Part shown: positions 6,773-63,789 of the stretch, piece after piece
Layout of the letters: the number at the start of each line of letters is the position of its first letter
Position numbering within the stretch: position 1 is the stretch's first letter
Assembly (NCBI GenBank): GCA_951406725.2
Contig: OX597831.1
Coordinates: 36,642,001-36,706,000 of the forward strand
Origin: Octopus vulgaris
Taxonomy: Eukaryota
Length of the DNA: 64,000 nt
Direction of reading: 5' to 3'
The notes under the pieces: model-generated
The model's input: the letters and a program-made list of their open reading frames with translations, nothing else
What the model was told of the DNA's origin: nothing
Database searches by the model: none
Position numbers and translations under genes: made by a program

Positions 6773-7471
6773 TGTGAATGTATGAATGGAAACGTTTCTA
6801 TGTGTACAAAATAGAAAAGTACAACTCTGAAAATAAAAACTGATTTCTTCCCAATTTTGTTTGAGTATGTGTATGCATGTGTGTGATTGGGAAATATGTG
6901 AATGCTTGTATCTGCGATTGTTTAGTACTTCATTTTGTACCTCGTTTGAATTACAATTAGCCATCAATTATAAATAGCACGGGGTCAGCTAGTAAATAAA
7001 TATAGAAATGTCAAAACGGTAGTAAGATAATTAAATAAATTAAATATAAAAATCCACCACCTGACAATCACAGATGAACCAAAATTAAAATACTCACAAT
7101 ATCTTACAAATTAAATTTTTTAAAAAATCCACGAGATTTTTTATTCTCTCTCTGTTTATTTTCTCTTATTCCTTTCTGTTGAAGAGCATAGGTTTGAAAG
7201 AAAAGACTTCCACACTTTCCTGAGCATCAAACTAATACACTCGTTGGTTGTTCATTCATCTGTCTTCATCTTTTGTTTATCTATGAACTTCGACAATATA
7301 TATATAATCCTAATATTTTCAATGAACTTTTTATTATTTTCTCAAGATTTTCCCTTGTAAACTGTTTTAACATTTTTCTTATTATTATCAAAGAACGTAT
7401 ATATGCATTGTAATATTTTGTGACAACCAGTACTTAACACAACAAAGTTTTTTACAAAGCTTTTACATTTT

Positions 7472-7513
7472 ACTTTTGACAATCTTTTTCTAAAAATGTG
7501 AAACCGGTCAAGT
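7472..7513 (+). ncRNA. Hammerhead motif, U3-A8 variant core, GUC site
   Basis: actt TTGACAA tctttttctaaaaatgt GAAA ccgg TC aagt: 4-bp stem I, weak A-U stem II, palindromic stem III; (TA)n starts ~40 bp downstream. Confidence 0.65.
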
Positions 7514-7550
7514 GAATAAACACCTTTTAAAATTGCATTTTCAAACCTTC

Positions 7551-7606
<56 letters not shown>

Positions 7607-18702: not shown

Positions 18703-19113
18703 TATTTATATAAGACTGACTTGGATTAAAAGAACAAAACAATATACATCATTATTCAACTAAGAAGAATAATTGTCCCAAGTGCAAGAGTTCATGGTAT
18801 CTTTGTGCAATGCAACAGAGTATTTCAAAAGAGAAATACGAATAACGATAATTGTGTTTTTCTCAATGGTATTAGCAGTTAAAGCAAAAAACGAAGAGTG
18901 AGTCTTAGTTCCCAACCTATATATAAGTAGCACATTTTTTTCTTGTTGGAATAATGAGCCAAACAAGGTCTTACATTGTTTAACAATATAATGTCTGTTG
19001 TTTGATGCTTAACATTAATATCATGTAAAAAATGTGAAATAAAGGAAAATAATAAAGAAATACATCAGTTCCCTGTTTATATGTGTGTGTCTGTATATGT
19101 GTTTTGTTTTTTG

Positions 19114-19150
19114 ATTTGAAAACCCCACTAGAATGGGAGAAAGCGCTAAT
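19114..19150 (+). ncRNA. Hammerhead motif, U3-A8 variant core
   Basis: at TTGAAAA cccc(actagaat)ggga GAAA gcgc TA at: palindromic stem III, stem I only 2 bp. Confidence 0.55.
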
Positions 19151-19466
19151 GATCTAAGTGATATGATATATATATAAAAAATGTAATATACAAATAAATA
19201 TCTGTAAATATAAACCATCCGATCTTCTGAGTACCTCATTTCTTCTAATATATATATATATAATCCTGGTGATTACCTTATTTCTTCTTAAATTGTTTTC
19301 ATATGCTGGCTAACCACAATGGCCCTTTAGTGGTACCTGACGGTGTGCAAGGTCCTGACGGTGTGCTGTCAATAACTGCTTAATAAAATTATACATGTGG
19401 AAATTCGTTCTTCTTGTCCTTATTTATATATGTATGTATATATATGTGTATATATATATATGTGTG

Positions 19467-19894: not shown

Positions 19895-20076
19895 GAATAT
19901 ACATGCAGATATGGGTAAAAGACAAAAAAACGTCAACGAAATGAGAAACGAGAACATAAAAACAAAAACAAAGAAAACAAACTTTTTTGAACAACGAAAG
20001 AAACTAACAGAGAAACGAGGCAGGCAACATATAGAACATTCTCTTCATCAGTGGTCCCCTGTTTTATCTACTCTAC

Positions 20077-20126
<50 letters not shown>

Positions 20127-20358
20127 TTATTTATTTATATAAACAGTCACATCTTGTCCCTACCTTCGAAATGCGGAGTAGATAAAACAGGGGACAACTG
20201 ATGAAGAGAATGTTCTTTATGTTGCCTGTCTCATTTCTCTGTTTGTTTCATTCGTTGTTCAAGAAAAAGTTCGTTTTCTATGTTTTTGCTTTTCTATGTT
20301 CTCGTTTCTCATTTTGTTGTCGATTTTTGATGTCCTGTACCCATACATGCATGTTATA
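19895..20358. repeat. Inverted pair of one ~180-bp repeat family separated by (TA)n
   Basis: 19895-20073 (..ctcttcatcagtggtcccctgttttatctactc) is the reverse complement, with mismatches, of 20176-20358 (gagtagataaaacaggggacaactgatgaagag..). Confidence 0.85.
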
Positions 20359-46013: not shown

Positions 46014-46708
46014 CAGTGAGAAACTAACAGCGGAGCTTCAAGCAGTCCAACGTCACTACACTAAAAAGATTGAATAAGTACCAGTTACACACTGGGGTCG
46101 ATATAATCGACTTAATCCGTTTGTCTGTCCTCTCTGTATTTACTCTTGTTTGTCCTCTCTGTATTTACAGTGGATGAGTTACAGAGATAGGCTGAGAAAA
46201 CTACAGCTTTATTCCTTGGAGTGAAGGCGTGACAGATACACAATGATATACATATGGAAAATCCGAGAATGGCTAGTACCTAACTTTGGCATTGAGTGTT
46301 ATACAAATGCCAGAACCGGCCACCATTGTAATGAAGGAAAGGTACCGTCCACTCAACCTAAATTCAGGACCAGGTATTGCAATAGTCTAGGGTTCAAAGG
46401 CCAACAGCTTTTCAATGCCCTGATACAAAAATTAAGAAATTTGAGCGAGGTGGAAGTAGATGTCTTCAAAAAGGAATTAGACATCTTCCTCTCCACAATA
46501 CTGGATGAACCAACAGCCCAGCATGAGGTACAGACGAGGGCAGCGGAATCAAACTCAGTTATACATCAAATGTACCCACAGCTGGGGAAAAGGCACACAC
46601 AGGAGTGGTTATGTGAAATACCCAGACTGGGGAAATCAGAGAAACCATGGTGGTGCTCCAGCATGACCACAGCCACATGGCTGAAACGAGGAAAAGAGTA
46701 AAAAAGTA
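46014..46708 (+). mobile_element. 5'-truncated CR1-group LINE: ORF2 end and 3' tail, interrupted by a SINE A piece (46073-46170)
   Basis: ELQAVQRHYTKKIE..MSYRDRLRKLQLYSLE*RRDRYTMIYIWKI..LFNAL..FKKELDIFLSTILDEP (ORF 46243-46701). Confidence 0.85.
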
Positions 46709-46714
46709 TGGTTG

Positions 46715-46900
<186 letters not shown>

Positions 46901-46921
46901 TGCATATGTGTGTGTGTGTAT

Positions 46922-47720
46922 GTAGAAGGTTGAAAAGGAACACATGAGTTGATATGTATAAAGTAAATAAGTCAAGGTAGAAAATGCTTAAAAGATTTTA
47001 GCATAAAGAACACTTTAGCACCGGTTTCAGTCATTGGGACTTTTTCAACTCTAAGTATGGAAAACAATTGCATTTTGGAAAAATTAAATGGAAAGTCTTT
47101 TTTAAAGAATATTTGCATGTTATTCAAATACAAGGGGCGTTTTTCTTGTTTCTCCTTGTCTGTGTCTCTCTCTTTTACTCTTGTGGGTTCAAGGTCATTG
47201 TGAATTCTTGGCAGAAAAGAAGCAGGAGAAGAAGAAGGAGATGAAGAAGTAGTAGTAGAAGAAGAAGAAGAACAAGAATGCGGGGGTGGTATGATGGTAG
47301 TAGGATGTTAAATGGTCAAGTGCCCTGCTATCCACCACGACCTTAGGATAACACACATGCAAATATAAAAAATGATACATTCAAAAGAGATACCCAAGAA
47401 TTCATTTAAAATAGTCCCAATCATTACTATAATCCCCAACGAACCACTTTTAGGTCACTTGAAGATTTAACACCCCATGACTATCATACCACTCCTGTAA
47501 TCTTTTATTATTCTTTCTCCTTCTTCTTCTTTGTCTTCTTTCTCTCCGCCACCTCCTTCATTCACTACTACTGCTGCTTAGAATAACATCCACGCAAGTA
47601 TTAAAAAACAATACATTTAAAAGAGATACCTCAAGAACTCAATCACTACTACCATCTACAAAAAGTCACTTTCAGGGCACTTGAACATTTAAAATCCTAC
47701 TACTATAATACCACTCTATA
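46922..47720 (-). mobile_element. Penelope 3'/pLTR-related segment (minus) followed by inverted partial copies
   Basis: 46922-47330 is homologous to 58560-58940 and to 48935-49420(-); 47330-47720 contains plus-orientation pieces of the same family. Confidence 0.65.
47017..47050 (-). ncRNA. Hammerhead motif, U3-A8 core, GUG at the cleavage triplet
   Basis: Minus strand: ag TTGAAAA agtc(ccaat)gact GAAA ccgg TG ct. Confidence 0.65.
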
Positions 47721-47848: not shown

Positions 47849-49024
47849 CACTTATAAACACATGTATTTATGTGCGAGTGTGTGTCTGAATGTATGTCCT
47901 ACATGCAACAATTATTGTTGTTATCTAGACCCCACTGAGAGAGCTTTTGTTTCAAAGAAACCAGTTTCCTCATTCTTGAATTATTACTAATTAATAGAAA
48001 CAACAGAAATAAATCAGAAGAGCTGGAAGAAATTCATTTCAAATGAAAATGGTTTCAAAGTGGACAATTTTCTTCGTATTCTTGTTTTCCATAGAATGTA
48101 AAACGCGATTCCCAAACAACTTTTCCTGAGATTTTCAAATTTCTTATACACCACGCCTACCAAATTCCGTACCGTTTCCCTTCACTCAAGAGGTACCGCT
48201 AGCTATTTGAAGACTCTGCCAAAAGAAAGAAAAGATATGCATAGGTACAAATGTTTGAAAAGAAATTTATTTTATGTACACTATGAATAATTAAGCATTT
48301 TTGCTTAATTTCTTGACAATATTGTATATATTGAGCTACTAAAATGAATGATGTAGTATTTTTTTATTTTGCCTGTGATAGGGTCATATAATACATGACA
48401 ACACCTGGATGTGTGCGTGTGCACATGTGTGTGTGTGTGCATGTGTGTGCATGTGTGTACGTGTGTGCACATGTATCTTTTCAAGATTATTCTATAATGT
48501 AAACATAATTTATTCAGTAAATACATCTAACAAAGCTTCTTAGCATTAGGAAAATGATTTCTTTTGTGTGTGTGTGTGTTTGTGTTTGAACATTCTTAGA
48601 GAAAGATATTAAAACTTGTAATACATATCTGCAAATTACGGGCTGTCTGGATAAAAAAAAAGCACACAAGAAAATTCATAAATAAGTAAGTGCAGCTAAT
48701 GTGAGGATTTCACTATATTGCAAGGTGATATATAATTGTGAAGAATAGAAAAAAAGACAACACTCACACACACACACACTCACATATATATATATCTTTT
48801 ATCTCTTACCTGTTTCAGTCATTAGACTACAGCCATGCTGAGACCTACCTTGAAATTTTAGTCAAATAAATCAACCCTGTACTTATTTTTCAAGCCTAGT
48901 ACTTATACCTTGCTAAAATCATGATATATATATATGTAGAAGTTTGAAAAGGAACGCATGAGTTGACATATATGGAAAAATGTCAAGATGGAAAATGCTA
49001 AAATAATTTTATAAAAAACATTTT

Positions 49025-49059
49025 AGCACCTGTTTCAGTCATTGAAACTTTTTCAACTG
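49025..49059 (-). ncRNA. Decayed hammerhead motif, U3-A8 core
   Basis: Minus strand: cag TTGAAAA agtt(tcaat)gact GAAA cagg TG ct, within Penelope-related segment 48935-49420. Confidence 0.55.
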
Positions 49060-49449
49060 TAAGTATGGAGAGCAATTAAATTTTGGAAAAAATTAAAAGA
49101 AAAGCTTTTTTAAAAGAATATTTGCATAGTGTCTCTTTGTTTCTGCCTATTTCTGTCTCTCTTGTTTACTCTTGTGGGTTCGAGGTCGTTGTAAATTCTT
49201 GGTAGGGTAGAATAAGAAGAATAAGAAGAAAAAGGGGAGGAGGAGAAGAAGAAGGAGGAGGAGGAGAAGAGGAAGAAGAAGAAATGTGTGAGTGCCTCGA
49301 TAGTACTATGTTAAATGGCCAAGTGTCCTGAAAGTGACTTGTGGATAGTAGTAGTGATTGAATTCCTGAAACATCTCTTTAGAATGTTTTGTTTATAAAA
49401 TTTGCATAGGTGTTATTCTAAACAGCAATATATATATATACATATACAC

Positions 49450-54428: not shown

Positions 54429-54708
54429 AATCAAAATAAGCAAAAAGGATATCCAAAGGTAATGCAATATGATCATTTCATGTGACTCCATTTAATTAAA
54501 TAATGCAAGTATTACATTAGTTTTAAAATGTAGAGCAATCTTCAGCTGCATATAAATATAGAATTTAACTAAATTCTATATTTATATGCAGCTGAAGATT
54601 GCTCTACATTTTAAAACTGATGTAATACTTGCATTGTTCAATTAAATGGAGTCGCATGAAACGATCGTACTGCATTACCTTTGGATATCCTTGTTGCTTA
54701 TTCTGATT
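54429..54708. repeat. Long palindrome: 140-bp arms, 2-nt spacer
   Basis: Centre gaattta-ac-taaattc. About 49 bp nearest the centre match perfectly; the outer arms have scattered mismatches. Confidence 0.95.
54588..54673 (+). ncRNA. Hammerhead motif with long stem II (mirror copy at 54464-54549 on minus)
   Basis: gcag CTGAAGA ttgctctacattt..aaatggagtcgcat GAAA cgatcg TA ctgc. Confidence 0.8.
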
Positions 54709-56680: not shown

Positions 56681-57555
56681 CTGTGTAAATGTGTGAGTAT
56701 GCTGCATGATGAGGTGCACAAGTGGTTACTGGTAGTTAGAGGTTTTCTTTAAAAATTTGCTAAATTTTGATATGTTTTAAAAAATATAAATAAAAATAAT
56801 ATTTTTTTTATTTCAAAACCTGAAAGAATCTAGGAGGGGGTGGAATTATATTTGCAGAACAGTGGATAAGGAAGCATAAAATATTTCCTTGGGTAGAGCA
56901 ATAAAATAAAATAAAATGAAAGAAATTATAAAATACACATATTTTTCTGTTTTATTTCACTTTTGCATGCATGTGTGTATGTATATATGTGTGTGTGTGT
57001 GTGTTTGTGTTAATGTGTGTATCTGTTGTGTGACTTCCTCCATCCTCACTCGCTCTGCATTCCATGCACTCAAGAAAATTCACAATCTCTTTTATTTTCT
57101 AGCTTTCTCACTTTTTATCTTAAAAATAAAAAGAAACCAAACTTTTTTTTAAGCAAGTAAGTCAGCTATAGAATATTTGAAATTCTTTAGCATGCTGCGT
57201 TAAGTGTGTGTATATGTATATTTCTAAATGTCTGTGTGAGAGTATGTATGTGCAAGTATGTGTTTTTGCATGCACTTGCAAGTATGCGTGTGTTCTGTAT
57301 GCATGGTGCTCATGTGTAAACATCATCATCATCCTCATCGTTGTTTAACGTCCTCTTTCCATGCTGGCTTGAGTTGGACGGTTTGACTGAGGACTGGCAA
57401 GCCAGGAAGCTGCACCAAGCTCTAATATAATCTGGCAAGGTTTCTACAGCTGGATGCCCTTCCTAACACCAACCACTCTGAGAGTGTAGCGGGTGCTTTT
57501 TACATGACACCGGCACAGGGGCCTGCCAGGCAGCACTGGCATTGGTGACGCTCAA

Positions 57556-58266
57556 ATGACAATTGACAAGTGCATTCAACGTGCCCTTCAACTTAACATC
57601 AAGGAACTGAGACATCCCAAATCAAAGAAAAACTTACAACCAAAAGCCTTACCATACATCTCCACACACAACCCTCTCAATAACGAAGCCTTCGGCACCA
57701 TCCTCCACAACATACCCCTCCTAAAAAAAGACCACAGAATGAACACAATCCTCCAAACACACACGATCATAAAAAGCAAAAGACAGCCTAGATCCATGAA
57801 AAGTCTTCTAACACAAGCCCGAATTCACTCTTCAACACAGAAGCCGACAGTAAAAAAATGTGGAAGACCCAATTGCGGGATATGCGACTATCTAATCGAG
57901 GGTTCTGAGTTCTCCTTCAAACAGGGACAACGGTTTACAGTGAAAAGCAACTTCACATGTGCTTCGGAGAACCTAATATACTCACTAACCTGCTCCGGGT
58001 GTCAAGAGCAGTACATAGGCCAAACAAAAAATGGTTTGCGTAAACGAATGGCCCTGCACAGATCCCAGATAAAAATTCCCCAAAACAGAAAAATAGCTTT
58101 TAGCCAACACATAGATACTTGCGCCAACAAAAAAACACCAAACTTCAGAATTTTCCCCCTCTACCAATTTAGGGACGATACAACCTCGAGACAACGAATA
58201 AGTAAAGAAAATCTCTTTATTATAAAATACAGGCCACTTCTTAACGGGTCTACGACAAACAATTAA
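57556..58266 (+). mobile_element. Penelope-like element ORF, C-terminal part (linker, Cys motif, GIY-YIG endonuclease), 5'-truncated
   Basis: Open 236-aa frame: LPYISTHNP..KRQPRSMKSLL..CGRPNCGIC..FTCASENLIYSLTCSGCQEQYIGQT..LRKRMALHRSQI..H..ENLFI..LN. No RT domain; the 5' end abuts a family C element. The Cys motif suggests the Neptune type (inference). Confidence 0.92.
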
Positions 58267-58811
58267 TATAGCTCAACTTAAGAATAAAAGAAATATATAT
58301 ACACACACAAATATTACATTCCATAGAATCCATTACTAATCGCCCCAAAACAGCTATATCTTCACCCATTCATATTCTCCCTTCTCTGTTTTTTTTTTCT
58401 TCTTCTCCCTCTTCTTCTCCTTCTTCATCATCATCGTTATCATCATCATCGTCGTCATCGTCATCACCACCATCATCATCGTCATCTTCTCCTTCTCCTT
58501 CTTCTTCTTCATCGTCATCATCATCGGCACCGTCATCTTCTTCTTCTTCTACTTCTCCACCTTCTACCCCCACTAATGTCTTAAAGTATAACGCCTACGC
58601 AGCGACTGCCGGTCGCCACTGACCAGCCCAGATTTTCCCACTCCCACCCCCTCAAGAACTCACAACGACCTCGAATACACAAGTGCAAACAAGGGAGTCA
58701 GAGAAAGGCAGAATGCCACATATATCTGAACACTACTATGGAAGTATTCCTTTAAAAAAACCTTTCTTCTAATTTTTCTAAATTTTTCAAAATTTAATTA
58801 TTTAATCGTTA

Positions 58812-58849
58812 CAGTTGAAAAGGTCTCAAAATGACCGAAACCGGTACTG
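58812..58849 (+). ncRNA. Penelope-associated minimal hammerhead, U3-A8 core, GUA site
   Basis: cag TTGAAAA ggtc(tcaaaat)gacc GAAA ccgg TA ctg, ~550 bp downstream of the GIY-YIG stop on the same strand. Confidence 0.82.
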
Positions 58850-58936
58850 AAAGATTCACTATAAAATCATCTTAGCATTTTCTATTTTTGACTTGTTTTT
58901 TCATATATATCAACTCGTGTGTTCCTTTCCACCCTT

Positions 58937-58967
<31 letters not shown>

Positions 58968-59043
58968 CATTCACATACGAACATACAGATAAGAGGAAAA
59001 AATCTATCAGAAAAGGAACTCTAATCTCTCTTTAAAAAATATA

Positions 59044-59077
59044 TTTTGATAAGCATAACAAATGCGCAACCGGTAAA
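59044..59077 (+). ncRNA. Hammerhead motif, U3-A8 core, GCAA in place of GAAA
   Basis: tt TTGATAA gcat(aacaa)atgc GCAA ccgg TA aa; downstream sequence resembles that after the 58812 motif. Confidence 0.6.
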
Positions 59078-60892
59078 AAGAACTTTCACCTAATTAAATT
59101 ACTTAAATTATTTTGTCAGCATTTTCTTCATTTCCTTTTTATATATCACAACTCGTGTTCCACATCTCCTTTTTTAAATATATATATATATATACATATA
59201 TATATCATTTAAAGTCCATTTACCACGTTGGCATGGTTTAGATGGTTTGATGGGAGCTGGCAAGCCAGAAGACTATCTACTTTAATATGGTTTTTATGAC
59301 TGAATGTTTTTCCCAATATCAAGCACTGTACAGAGTGTACTGGGTGCTTTTTACATGGCACCAGCACTAGTGAGGTCACCTAATAACTTAAAAGACAAAG
59401 GCCCATCAACTGAGAAGGGGAGTGGTATTGAGAGAGATAGCTTTCTACTAGATGATGAACGGTTAAACTATGAGAGAGGGGCAGAAACAGATGTCTGGCT
59501 CTGGAGAAGATATATGGCTGCCCTAGTTAATATGAGAGAGTGAGAGAGAAGTGAGAGGACCCCAGGACTGAGACTGAACCTGGAACAATGTGGCTGGGAA
59601 GCAAGTTTTTTACCACACTGCTACTCCTGTGCCTATGCTGTTTTTCATTATTTGAATTCTTCTCTTGAGGAAAGAGCTAGTCTCTAACAAACATACAAAG
59701 CTCCATCATTGGAATCTCTTTTACTTGTTTCAGTCATTTGACTATGGCCATGCTGGAGCACCACCTTTAGCCGAGCAAATCGACCCTAGGACTTATTCTT
59801 TGTAAGCCCAGTACTTATTCTATCAGTATCTTTTGCCGAACTGCTAAGTTACAGTGACATAAACATACCAGCATCGTTTGTCAACGATGTTGGGGGGACA
59901 AACACAGACGCACAAACATATACACACACATACACACATATATATACATATATACGATGGTCTTCTTTCAGTTTCTGTCTACCAAATCCACTCACAAGGC
60001 TTTGGTTGGCTCAAGGCTATAGTAGAAGACACTTGCCCAAGGTACCACGCAGTGGGACTGAACCCGGAACCATGTGGTTGGTAAGCAAGCTACTTACCAC
60101 ACAGCCACTCCTACGCCTGTGTGATAAGTGGGATGTAGATAACAAAAGCAATGTCAGATTTTTAACTTGAGAAATGTCTTGGATATTTTTGTTATTCCAC
60201 TTACAGACTGTATTTGTAACGTACGAGTGGATTGATTCCCTTTTCTTAAAATCCTAGCATACCCAGTTTGTCACTCAGGAATTTACCCCAAAATCCACAT
60301 GCACCAGATATTATTGCTATAAATGTGAATCGATAATCCAGACACAGCAGCTGGAGATTTCGAAGCAGTTGTCCATGGTTATCCTCTCTCTCTTGTATAT
60401 ATGTATGTATATATGCATGTGTGTGTGTGTCTGTCTGTCTGTGTCTATGACTGTGTGTGCATGTGTATGCATATCTTCATGTATGTGCATGTGTTGTTAA
60501 GCTCCAGAATGTCAAGGATTAAGAATCTACAGCTAAGACATTCAAACTATGATTATTCTGTCTTATGTTCTGTAAACTGTGTTTTCAAGACAATACAATG
60601 TTATTCATTATAAATTTTCATCTTTATAAGGACAAACATAATATATAATTAATACATGTACATATTTTCTGAAGCTTCACTTAATTAATCTTACTTATAA
60701 AATATATATACCAATAAAATCAAAAATGATATTTTATATACTACAAATGAATGTTAATATAACTTCAGTGAAAAAAAAAAAAAATTATTAACAATACTAA
60801 ACTGAAGCTGGTTATTGAAAACATTCATAATTGGTTAACGATCTTTTTCAACTGTGATGTGAACATTGCCGTCTGTTATTTCCTTGCATAGA

Positions 60893-61625: not shown

Positions 61626-61997
61626 GTATAGGAAATATGAGTCTGTGTATGATATAGTTAGAAACATATATATTTATTCGTAGATAAAGTTAATAGAAAT
61701 TTATGTCTTTGGTTGTTTGGTATTGACAAAGATTATGTTGGTGATGGGGAAGTCGGTCTGGGCAATGTGACGTCAGTGACTACTAAACTGAGAAAGAAGC
61801 GACACCAGATAGAAAAAGAAAGAAAATTTGCAAACAAAAGCAATAGATATTTTTTTTTATTATTAAATAACAATAATAATAATAATAAAAATATATATAT
61901 GAAATATATTCAAATAAATATAATGTAATAATATAATATATGTCATGGAATCATATGTATTATGTGTGTGTGTTTGTGTAAATGCAATATATATATG

Positions 61998-62053
<56 letters not shown>

Positions 62054-62136
62054 TGTGTGTAGATAGATAGATAGATAATTATATCTAGATATGTAGATGT
62101 AATATGTGTATATGAAAATGTAATAGATATATATGT

Positions 62137-62191
<55 letters not shown>

Positions 62192-62347
62192 CATACACAC
62201 ACACACACATGCACACACATATATATATACATATATATAGTTGAAATTTAAAGAAAAACCAAAGATGAAGACAAGTATCTGAACAACAAGTAGGTTTATT
62301 AGTTTATATACATACATATATAAATATCTATATATCTATATCTATAT

Positions 62348-62444: not shown

Positions 62445-63397
62445 ATATAATAAATTAATATATAATAAATTAATTTTACTCTGCTATGTATTGAGTACCT
62501 TATTTACTGTGGTTAACCCCGAATCAACCCGGGACCTACATATATATATATGTGGAGAACGGACGTTAAACGACGATGATGATATATATATATATGTTCT
62601 CTCTCTATATATATATGCATGTATGTATTCACATACATTCACACATAAGTGAGTAAATAAATGAAAGAACATACATCTCGATGAATATATTTTGTATGTA
62701 TTACTTATGCTTCAAACTACTTTTTGATTCAACTCCACATCACTTGAAGTTTCATGAACACATGAGGTACATCCATCTCGTTTAATGCTAAGGATGGATG
62801 TATCCTACACACATGCACACACACGAAACTCTGAATCATTAAGTGCTGAGTTTAATTAGTACTATATATATATATATTCTTTCCCTCTTTTACTTTTTTA
62901 CTTGTTTCAGTCATTTGACTGCAGCCATGCTGGAGCATTCTCTTTAGTCAAACGTGTCGACCTCGGGACTAATTCTTTGTAAGCCTAGTACTTATTCTAT
63001 CAGCCTCTTTTGCCAAACTGCTAAGTCACAGGGATGTAAGCACACCAGCATTGGCTGTCAAGCAATAGTGGGGGAACACAGTCACATAAACATATATATA
63101 TATATATATATACAAAGATTATGTTGGTGATGGGGAATATATGTCGGTCTGGGCAATGTGACGTCAGTGACTACTAAACTGAGAAAGAAGCGACACCAGA
63201 TAGAAAAAGAAAGAAAATTTGCAAACAAAAGCAATAGATATTTTTTTTTTATTATTAAATAACAATAATAATAATAATAAAAATATATATATGAAATATA
63301 TTCAAATAAATATAATGTAATAATATAATATATGTCATGGAATCATATGTATTATGTGTGTGTGTTTGTGTAAATGCAATATATATATGTATATATA

Positions 63398-63452
<55 letters not shown>

Positions 63453-63542
63453 CTGTGTGTAGATAGATAGATAGATAATTATATCTAGATATGTAGATGT
63501 AATATGTGTATATGAAAATGTAATAGATATATATGTATACAA

Positions 63543-63597
<55 letters not shown>

Positions 63598-63789
63598 CAT
63601 ACACACACACACACATGCACACACATATATATATACATATATATAGTTGAAATTTAAAGAAAAACCAAAGATGAAGACAAGTATCTGAACAACAAGTAGG
63701 TTTATTAGTTTATATACATACATATATAAATATCTATATATCTATATCTATATCTACATATATATATATATATATTTATTATATAGAAG

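Follow-up and report, generated by a model that had tools for sequence, protein, structure and literature searches.

U3-A8 hammerhead motifs in Penelope-like elements of Octopus vulgaris and how far their cleavage may be required

Can a hammerhead motif with U3-A8 in place of C3-G8 serve the mobile element that carries it, and is the pair kept for the sake of cleavage? The question is raised by a 64,000-nt stretch of Octopus vulgaris DNA (contig OX597831.1, positions 36,642,001 to 36,706,000; here, the window), AT-rich animal DNA full of microsatellites from an assembly of 2.8 Gb. A preliminary description had reported six UUGANAA motifs in it, and all six were found, offset by a few bases from the positions first given and two of them on the minus strand. 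Their U3 residues (general hammerhead numbering) lie at 7476(+), 19116(+), 47048(-), 49056(-), 58815(+), and 59046(+), and N7 is C, A, A, A, A, and U in the same order. A stringent pattern, TTGANAA followed by a spacer, G[AC]A, and a 6-nt palindrome rich in GC, matched the window five times, compared with a mean of 0.005 and a maximum of 1 in 200 shuffles; the motif at 49056 was not matched because its palindrome is damaged (ACAGGT). In line with the expectation that canonical searches would miss the variant core, hammerhead families were absent among the 150 of 167 Rfam matches listed for the window, which were mostly microsatellite miRNA noise. Spurious miRNA matches below the gathering score also fell on long near-perfect inverted repeats at 54508-54629 and 20020-20230, probably a small DNA transposon or inverted insertions.

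Hammerhead motifs of the window and their elements

The motifs at 47048 and 49056 lie in decayed solo pseudo-LTRs (pLTRs) of the A/B group on the minus strand, at 46888-47214 (70-72% identity to the family-A pLTR) and 48924-49210 (75-78%). Both carry G17, which we considered as a partner change of U3 and rejected, as A17 is present in 31 of the 34 A/B-group motifs examined and these two are decayed copies. The motif at 7476 lies in a solo pLTR fragment of family C (7385-7603, plus strand; 74-91% identity to loci L008, L022, L105, and L112) with a U10.1.U11.1 mismatch, ACCGGT, and C17. Locus L112 carries a Penelope-like element (PLE) ORF 57% identical to that of family A. The motif at 19116 belongs to a solo pLTR fragment of family I (19110-19262, plus strand; 83-89% identity to L210-L220) with a C10.1.A11.1 mismatch, AGCGCT as stem III, and A17; endonucleases ∼41% identical to that of family A are carried by two loci of this family (L213 and L216). 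Stem II starts with U.U in 13/13 examined family-C motifs (window 7476-7509) and in another family (L068), and C10.1.A11.1 closes stem II in 6/7 examined copies of the large family I (window 19116-19148; L210-L220). Elsewhere in the window, a near-identical duplicated segment occupies 61943-62335 and 63352-63741, ∼1.4 kb apart, and a 158-aa frame at 46225-46701 (+) had no Pfam match; we take it to resemble the C-terminal end of a LINE ORF2.

The motif at 58815 lies in a 5′-truncated family-A PLE on the plus strand. A 3′ fragment of ORF2 at 57562-58266, recognized by Pfam and by identity to the intact unit, comprises the end of the RT thumb, a CX4CX2C linker, and a GIY-YIG domain with CCHH, the last two encoded by an open frame at 57508-58266. 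The GIY-YIG match of this ORF (E 3.2e-4, 21.4 bits) is slightly below the Pfam cut-off of 22.6, its protein is 97% identical to the L051 ORF, and the DNA at 57562-58565 is 94% identical to the intact family-A unit. The 3′ pLTR and tail follow at 58635-58944 (89.7% identity to the intact unit) and end in (TA)n, where other family-A copies also terminate at about the same position. Intact family-A units form tandem arrays with a period of 4.43 kb and are ordered as hammerhead, ORF1 (411 aa from Met), and ORF2 (784 aa stop to stop). Pfam matched RVT_1 and GIY-YIG on the intact ORF2 of families A and G, the family-A GIY-YIG at 22.4 bits against the cut-off of 22.6. These matches, together with the identity of the window copy to intact units, confirm the proposed link to a GIY-YIG Penelope ORF. 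The RT with a C-terminal GIY-YIG found here, and the pLTR-ORF-pLTR units with hammerhead and tail observed in tandem and inverted copies, are features of EN+ PLEs, and CGRPNCGIC and CSGC..H..H in the window ORF fit the CX2-5CxxC linker and CCHH of Neptune/Nematis. Judged by motifs and (TA)n preference, the element at 57562-58944 appears to be a Neptune-type PLE.

Motif anatomy and predicted fold describe a minimal type I hammerhead at 58809-58852 (+). Its parts are the 5′ strand of stem I (58809-14), U3 to A9 (58815-21), stem II (58822-36), GAA (58837-39), the palindrome ACCGGT (58840-45), A17 (58846), and the 3′ strand of stem I (58847-52). Compared with the type I core (Y3 U4 G5 A6 N7 R8 A9 / G12 A13 A14 / A15.1-U16.1 / H17, with 3 and 8 complementary), it has UUGAAAA, GAA, A..U, and A17, U3-A8 being an accepted variant. 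Stem II has 4 bp, stem I forms 5/6 pairs, and stem III is formed in the predicted dimer by 6 bp between the palindromes of two molecules. In thermodynamic folding, which is blind to the tertiary 3-8 pair, a double hammerhead was the best predicted fold, with a homodimer at -26.1 kcal/mol in which stem III forms at p 0.97, stem I in trans at p 0.98, and the U3-A17 extension at p 0.84. The dimer stem I was absent or weak in 7/10 motifs folded and strong only for A, C, and E_UA. The U3-A17 extension would mirror, by analogy, the trap that C3-G17 forms in canonical cores (PMC3884650; for this and all other papers cited, the statements apply to the sections available to us). The modeled motif is likely to cleave only slowly. 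The AG just 5′ of U3 (58813-58814) is invariant in 11/11 aligned A/B motifs and follows a pyrimidine-rich stretch, so that, besides belonging to stem I, it could act as a 3′ splice site; contigs of seven RNA runs chosen by guess contained no splice joint at AG|U3 or from stem III to ORF1, which carries no weight either way.

A different PLE family, G, carries the motif at 59046. A short copy at 58986-59205 (+), with (TA)n on both sides and 97-98% identity to L071-L080, begins at an initiator-like site ∼60 nt 5′ of its motif, where the 5′ ends of copies pile up; a first look genome-wide gave 1670 candidates, the best 92-99% identical. Its degenerate hammerhead (59046-59075, +) has a U3-A8 core, stem II GCAT/ATGC, G12-C13-A14, ACCGGT, and A17. 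C13 in place of the invariant A13, noted earlier as GCAA, proved to be fixed throughout the family: it occurs in 43/44 family-G motifs (30 loci) and in ∼84 of the first 100 of 2347 pattern matches, while A13 with a family-G stem II was found nowhere in the genome and non-C13 copies number only 19. Beside the core, two A-U pairs are followed by mismatches, and the predicted trans stem I has p 0.0. We consider this ribozyme likely crippled, and no more than likely because A13 mutants are reported to be inhibited 10-100-fold (PMC4075628).

Nevertheless, family G has amplified. It has ∼2000 motif copies and intact elements 99.4-99.8% pairwise identical, and among long copies fetched ORF1 is present in 5/5 and an intact 784-aa ORF2 in 4/5. 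With an ORF2 72% identical to that of family A at the amino acid level, it is by sequence a separate, autonomous, and very young PLE family. Both pLTR motifs of one element (L203:1388-5890) carry C13 and lack a predicted stem I but keep the ACCGGU pairing, and no other hammerhead was found in the three loci scanned. CCAAT, CACGTG, GC-box, and TATA-like motifs lie 5′ of the hammerhead in the family-G pLTR (L203:5530-5860; L076). Short copies start ∼30 nt after the TATA-like motif, at the initiator-like site, and are often head-to-head palindromes of ∼370 nt that could pass for MITEs.

Do 58815 and 59046 act together, as a functional dimer in cis? Folding predicts that both stems II form and that the ACCGGU palindromes of the two motifs pair in cis (p 0.88-0.96). 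However, the first positions of the cross stem I would be G.A/A.A/C.A at one hybrid site and, at the other, U.C/U.U/A.G, so that it can pair at neither, and the second core has C13. The motifs also come from different families (72% aa identity), the family-G copy being nested by chance in the (TA)n tail of the family-A element, and this arrangement occurs in 1/40 A-type and 1/74 G-type motifs examined, in both cases the window itself. We therefore rejected the cis dimer, whose function we regard as highly improbable.

The ORFs of these elements depart from the single ORF of EN+ PLEs. In families A, G, and C, ORF1 overlaps ORF2, which lies in the -1 frame, and a TTTTTTA heptamer, matching the general -1 slippery consensus, stands in the ORF1 codon frame (L152, minus strand; L203:2815-2821; L112:1814-1820), conserved though the ORF2 proteins are only 57-72% identical; family-C ORF1 was seen in part. 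From sequence, a programmed -1 frameshift is likely, and it would yield one fusion protein from the two overlapping ORFs of intact A and G copies. Folding gave no stable stimulatory hairpin 3′ of the slippery site in A or G and one of -6.9 kcal/mol in C. Fused ORF1-ORF2 relatives were absent among 508 candidates, which is weak evidence.

Core states at positions 3 and 8 across the genome

How widely is U3-A8 shared? We counted core states with the pattern YTGANRA N11-16 GAAACCGGT for the ACCGGT class, using the reversed pattern as a control. Genome-wide, there were 8128 matches versus 93 for the control. C3G8 accounted for 157 (control, 16), C3A8 for 236 (24), and U3G8 for 143 (21), leaving by subtraction ∼7592 U3A8, or ∼93% of the class. 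The mismatched states thus amount to 379/8128, in which the 236 overstates true mismatches because ∼30 of 100 C3A8 matches listed are one repeat with stem II unpaired in that register. The AGCGCT class had 3130 matches (control, 28), the first 100 of which, counted by eye, comprised 75 UA, 11 CG, 11 UG, and 3 CA. The census covered these two palindromes, and core conservation is partly built into its search patterns. A13 changed to G in ∼10 of the first 100 of 2347 pattern matches, the same order of magnitude as the mismatch rate. Most 3-8 mismatches are single-copy decay, and copy counts therefore reflect age rather than selection.

The statement that positions 3 and 8 always change together is true of the six motifs picked but not of the genome, where mismatched copies occur and one C3A8 subfamily has amplified. 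Similarly, the covariation proposed for stem II is real as GGTC/GACC versus AGTC/GACT (G10.1-C11.1 versus A-U) but weak within the family: an 11-sequence family alignment had two pairs with two-sided change, a number reached by 94/500 shuffles and not significant.

Family-level data are the better evidence. We selected 30 loci by endonuclease profile alone, 21 of which have a hammerhead-like motif and a downstream palindrome of 6 to 8 nt. Nineteen of these motifs are U3A8 (17 in family M/M2, with ACATGT, and 2 in family G), one is C3G8, and one is U3G8 (family N); family N is the C3G8 lineage among loci picked by endonuclease. A 21-row endonuclease tree placed U3A8 in A, G, M, C, and I and resolved N as sister to I (95/85), but not the deep branches or the root. 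Thus, U3-A8 is fixed in several GIY-YIG-linked PLE families, but its fixation by a single Penelope lineage, as first proposed, does not fit: it spans endonucleases ∼40% identical and an unrelated retrozyme, and C3G8 lineages are interleaved. Strict selection for catalysis, the other part of that proposal, fails as well, as families with C13, C3.A8, and the C10.1.A11.1 mismatch have amplified. Pairing at 3-8 has been kept, while catalysis looks weakly required. At one further locus (L239), the GIY-YIG match is unlike PLE endonucleases and resembles a host SLX1-type exon.

The retrozyme, family E, lies outside the window. It consists of short non-coding tandem repeats with a period of 360 nt and a type I hammerhead in each, with no PLE ORF2 match in tandem loci, and contains U3A8 (L063, L064, and L179-L202), C3A8 (L056-L062), and C3G8 (L031-L049) clades, including 276 U3 copies and most ACCGGT-class C3G8 matches. 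One of the seven C3.A8 loci fetched is a three-unit tandem; an endonuclease fragment without the cysteine linker lies near L058. In a tree of 38/51 rows, built with positions 3 and 8 masked after removal of 13 rows that were chimeric or divergent, the groups UA (100/99), CG (99/97), and CA (83/88) require two changes, and CA lies between the other two. The root falls among UA when set by two divergent UA rows, and a CG-side root is not rejected (p-AU 0.067). The best tree runs from UA to CA to CG, and the alternative, CA derived from CG by CpG decay, costs one extra change. By its sequences, family E appears to be partway through a switch, with the mismatched C3.A8 intermediate itself amplified.

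Template use and the role of the motif

If cleaved RNA were the template, would copies start at the cleavage site? Of the long copies examined, 30 of family A and 25 of family G, none has its 5′ end there. The nearest downstream starts are at +191 (family A) and +57 (family G) from U3, and 10 copies per set extend 5′ of the site; all 10 family-A copies reaching 5′ of +191 run through it. Short family-G copies pile up ∼60 nt 5′ of U3, where the query began, so that this pile-up is partly ascertained. Starts away from the cleavage site fit the PAc element, whose hammerhead mutants still insert (PMC11167929). Circular or re-ligated templates would give the identical 5′-end pattern.

We think it probable that 58815 is a minimal type I U3-A8 hammerhead, likely slow and predicted to act as a palindrome-paired homodimer, in the pLTR of a truncated Neptune-type PLE, and that 59046 belongs to a separate (TA)n-inserted family and is likely crippled. 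Two pLTR copies, as tandem units of one transcript or as two RNAs, would pair stems III and I in trans, U3-A8 would stand in for C3-G8, and cleavage is predicted to follow A17. Selection would likely keep 3 and 8 paired over long times but only weakly, because integration would use uncleaved (or re-ligated) RNA primed 3′ of the ribozyme. Low activity, damped further by the predicted U3-A17 extension of stem I, would suit such an integration cycle. The motif may also matter for something besides cleavage, because families with disrupted cores (C13; C3.A8; C10.1.A11.1) have amplified.

How well do other explanations account for these data? One is that the motif is kept mainly as a palindromic element for RNA pairing or protein binding and that cleavage is dispensable in this radiation. 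The intact, young family G, with C13 in both pLTRs, the ACCGGU pairing kept, and no second hammerhead in three loci, is consistent with it, as are the lack of insertions beginning at the cleavage site, the insertion of PAc mutants, and the Naiads, which have no hammerheads (PMC8557442). Nevertheless, in most families 3 and 8 are still complementary, and UA and CG replace each other as whole pairs, for which catalysis is the only ready explanation; moreover, the A13 mutation is reported to inhibit only 10-100-fold, and the state of family G could reflect a recent loss or complementation in trans. We regard this explanation as unlikely. Still less likely is that the motif is dead and that AT-biased neutral decay of its C3G8 has ended in U3A8. 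In favor of this, the family-A and -G flanks are 21-23% GC, each of the two changes is of the C>T or G>A type, there are mismatched subfamilies, and U3G8 makes up 11 of the first 100 of 3130 matches in the older AGCGCT class. Against this, the adjoining G5, G12, and CCGG persist undecayed in families A and G despite these flanks, and in the retrozyme, at 47-51% GC, U3A8 is the most diverse clade and the best tree runs toward CG (the opposite root, at p-AU 0.067, is not rejected). Simple decay was to be recognized by mismatched states as frequent as U3A8, and ∼7592 versus 379 speaks against it; this test is weak, since per-copy mismatch counts mainly measure post-insertion decay.

In a broader reading, hammerhead catalysis would be becoming optional in PLEs: an autonomous and recently active family would transpose with a dead C13 hammerhead of which just the pairing palindrome is kept, a retrozyme would have passed through C3.A8 on its way from U3A8 to C3G8, and RT-endonuclease would be made by a conserved -1 frameshift. 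We hold this reading only tentatively and think it somewhat less probable than its contrary. The role of PLE hammerheads has been stated to be unclear (PMC8557442), and the genome offers natural material for it: intact family A, with a complete core, beside its intact sister family G, which has C13 and lacks stem I, and a retrozyme whose three core states sit in almost identical flanks. These make it testable whether cleavage is needed for PLE mobility and how a compensatory core change is crossed.

Comparison with known systems

Cervera and De la Pena (2014, PMC4209133) have already described U3-A8 in PLE hammerheads, together with dimers, a palindromic helix III, and low activity, and natural U3-A8 covariation is published as well, in rare U3-A8 and U10.1-U11.1 variants (Perreault et al. 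2011, PMC3088659). With the headline claim known, its value here lies in the numbers: in this genome, most palindromic PLE hammerheads would escape descriptors tied to CUGANGA. What is new is family G with C13, the three-state retrozyme, the lack of starts at the cleavage site among 55 long copies, and the -1 slippery overlap. A limited literature search found no report of an active C13 family or a frameshifted EN+ PLE, and C13 or mismatch families may be reported already.

The closest parallel is Cercyon of Schistosoma mansoni (PMC4209133), which shares the pLTR location, U3-A8, palindromic helix III, dimer architecture, and many solo or inverted copies. There, U3-A8 gave ∼1,300 hits compared with ∼2,000 canonical min-HHRs, whereas here it makes up ∼93% of the ACCGGT class and ∼75% of the first 100 AGCGCT matches; the octopus motifs also differ in that their palindromes are 6 nt long, A17 is frequent, and families with C13, C3.A8, or a C.A mismatch have amplified. 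The covariation is the one described in PMC3088659, whose U.U first pair matches family C, whereas the A13 substitution is not in the variant section of that paper. The Neptune/Nematis EN+ PLEs (Craig et al. 2021, PMC8557442) share GxKF, DKG, RT, the CX2-5CxxC linker, the C-terminal GIY-YIG with CCHH, (TA)n insertion, and tandem and inverted copies. A single ORF is canonical for them, in contrast to the overlap at a conserved TTTTTTA found here; the Fig. 1 legend of that paper includes an optional ORF1 with a frameshift, with the clade not specified in the text available. Family E resembles metazoan non-LTR retrozymes (PMC7229834; bioRxiv 10.64898/2026.07.22.740005) in its ∼360-nt tandem repeats and type I hammerhead and differs from them in that a single family has three core states and its mismatched state has amplified. 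Finally, insertion in vitro is unaffected by hammerhead mutations in the Poseidon element PAc of Anolis (Frangieh et al. 2024, PMC11167929), in which, as is likely here, RT starts 3′ of the hammerhead with unprocessed RNA as the template. PAc has a C3-G8 core and an ORF that starts inside the ribozyme, whereas in the octopus elements the Met of ORF1 lies ∼155 nt 3′ of U3.
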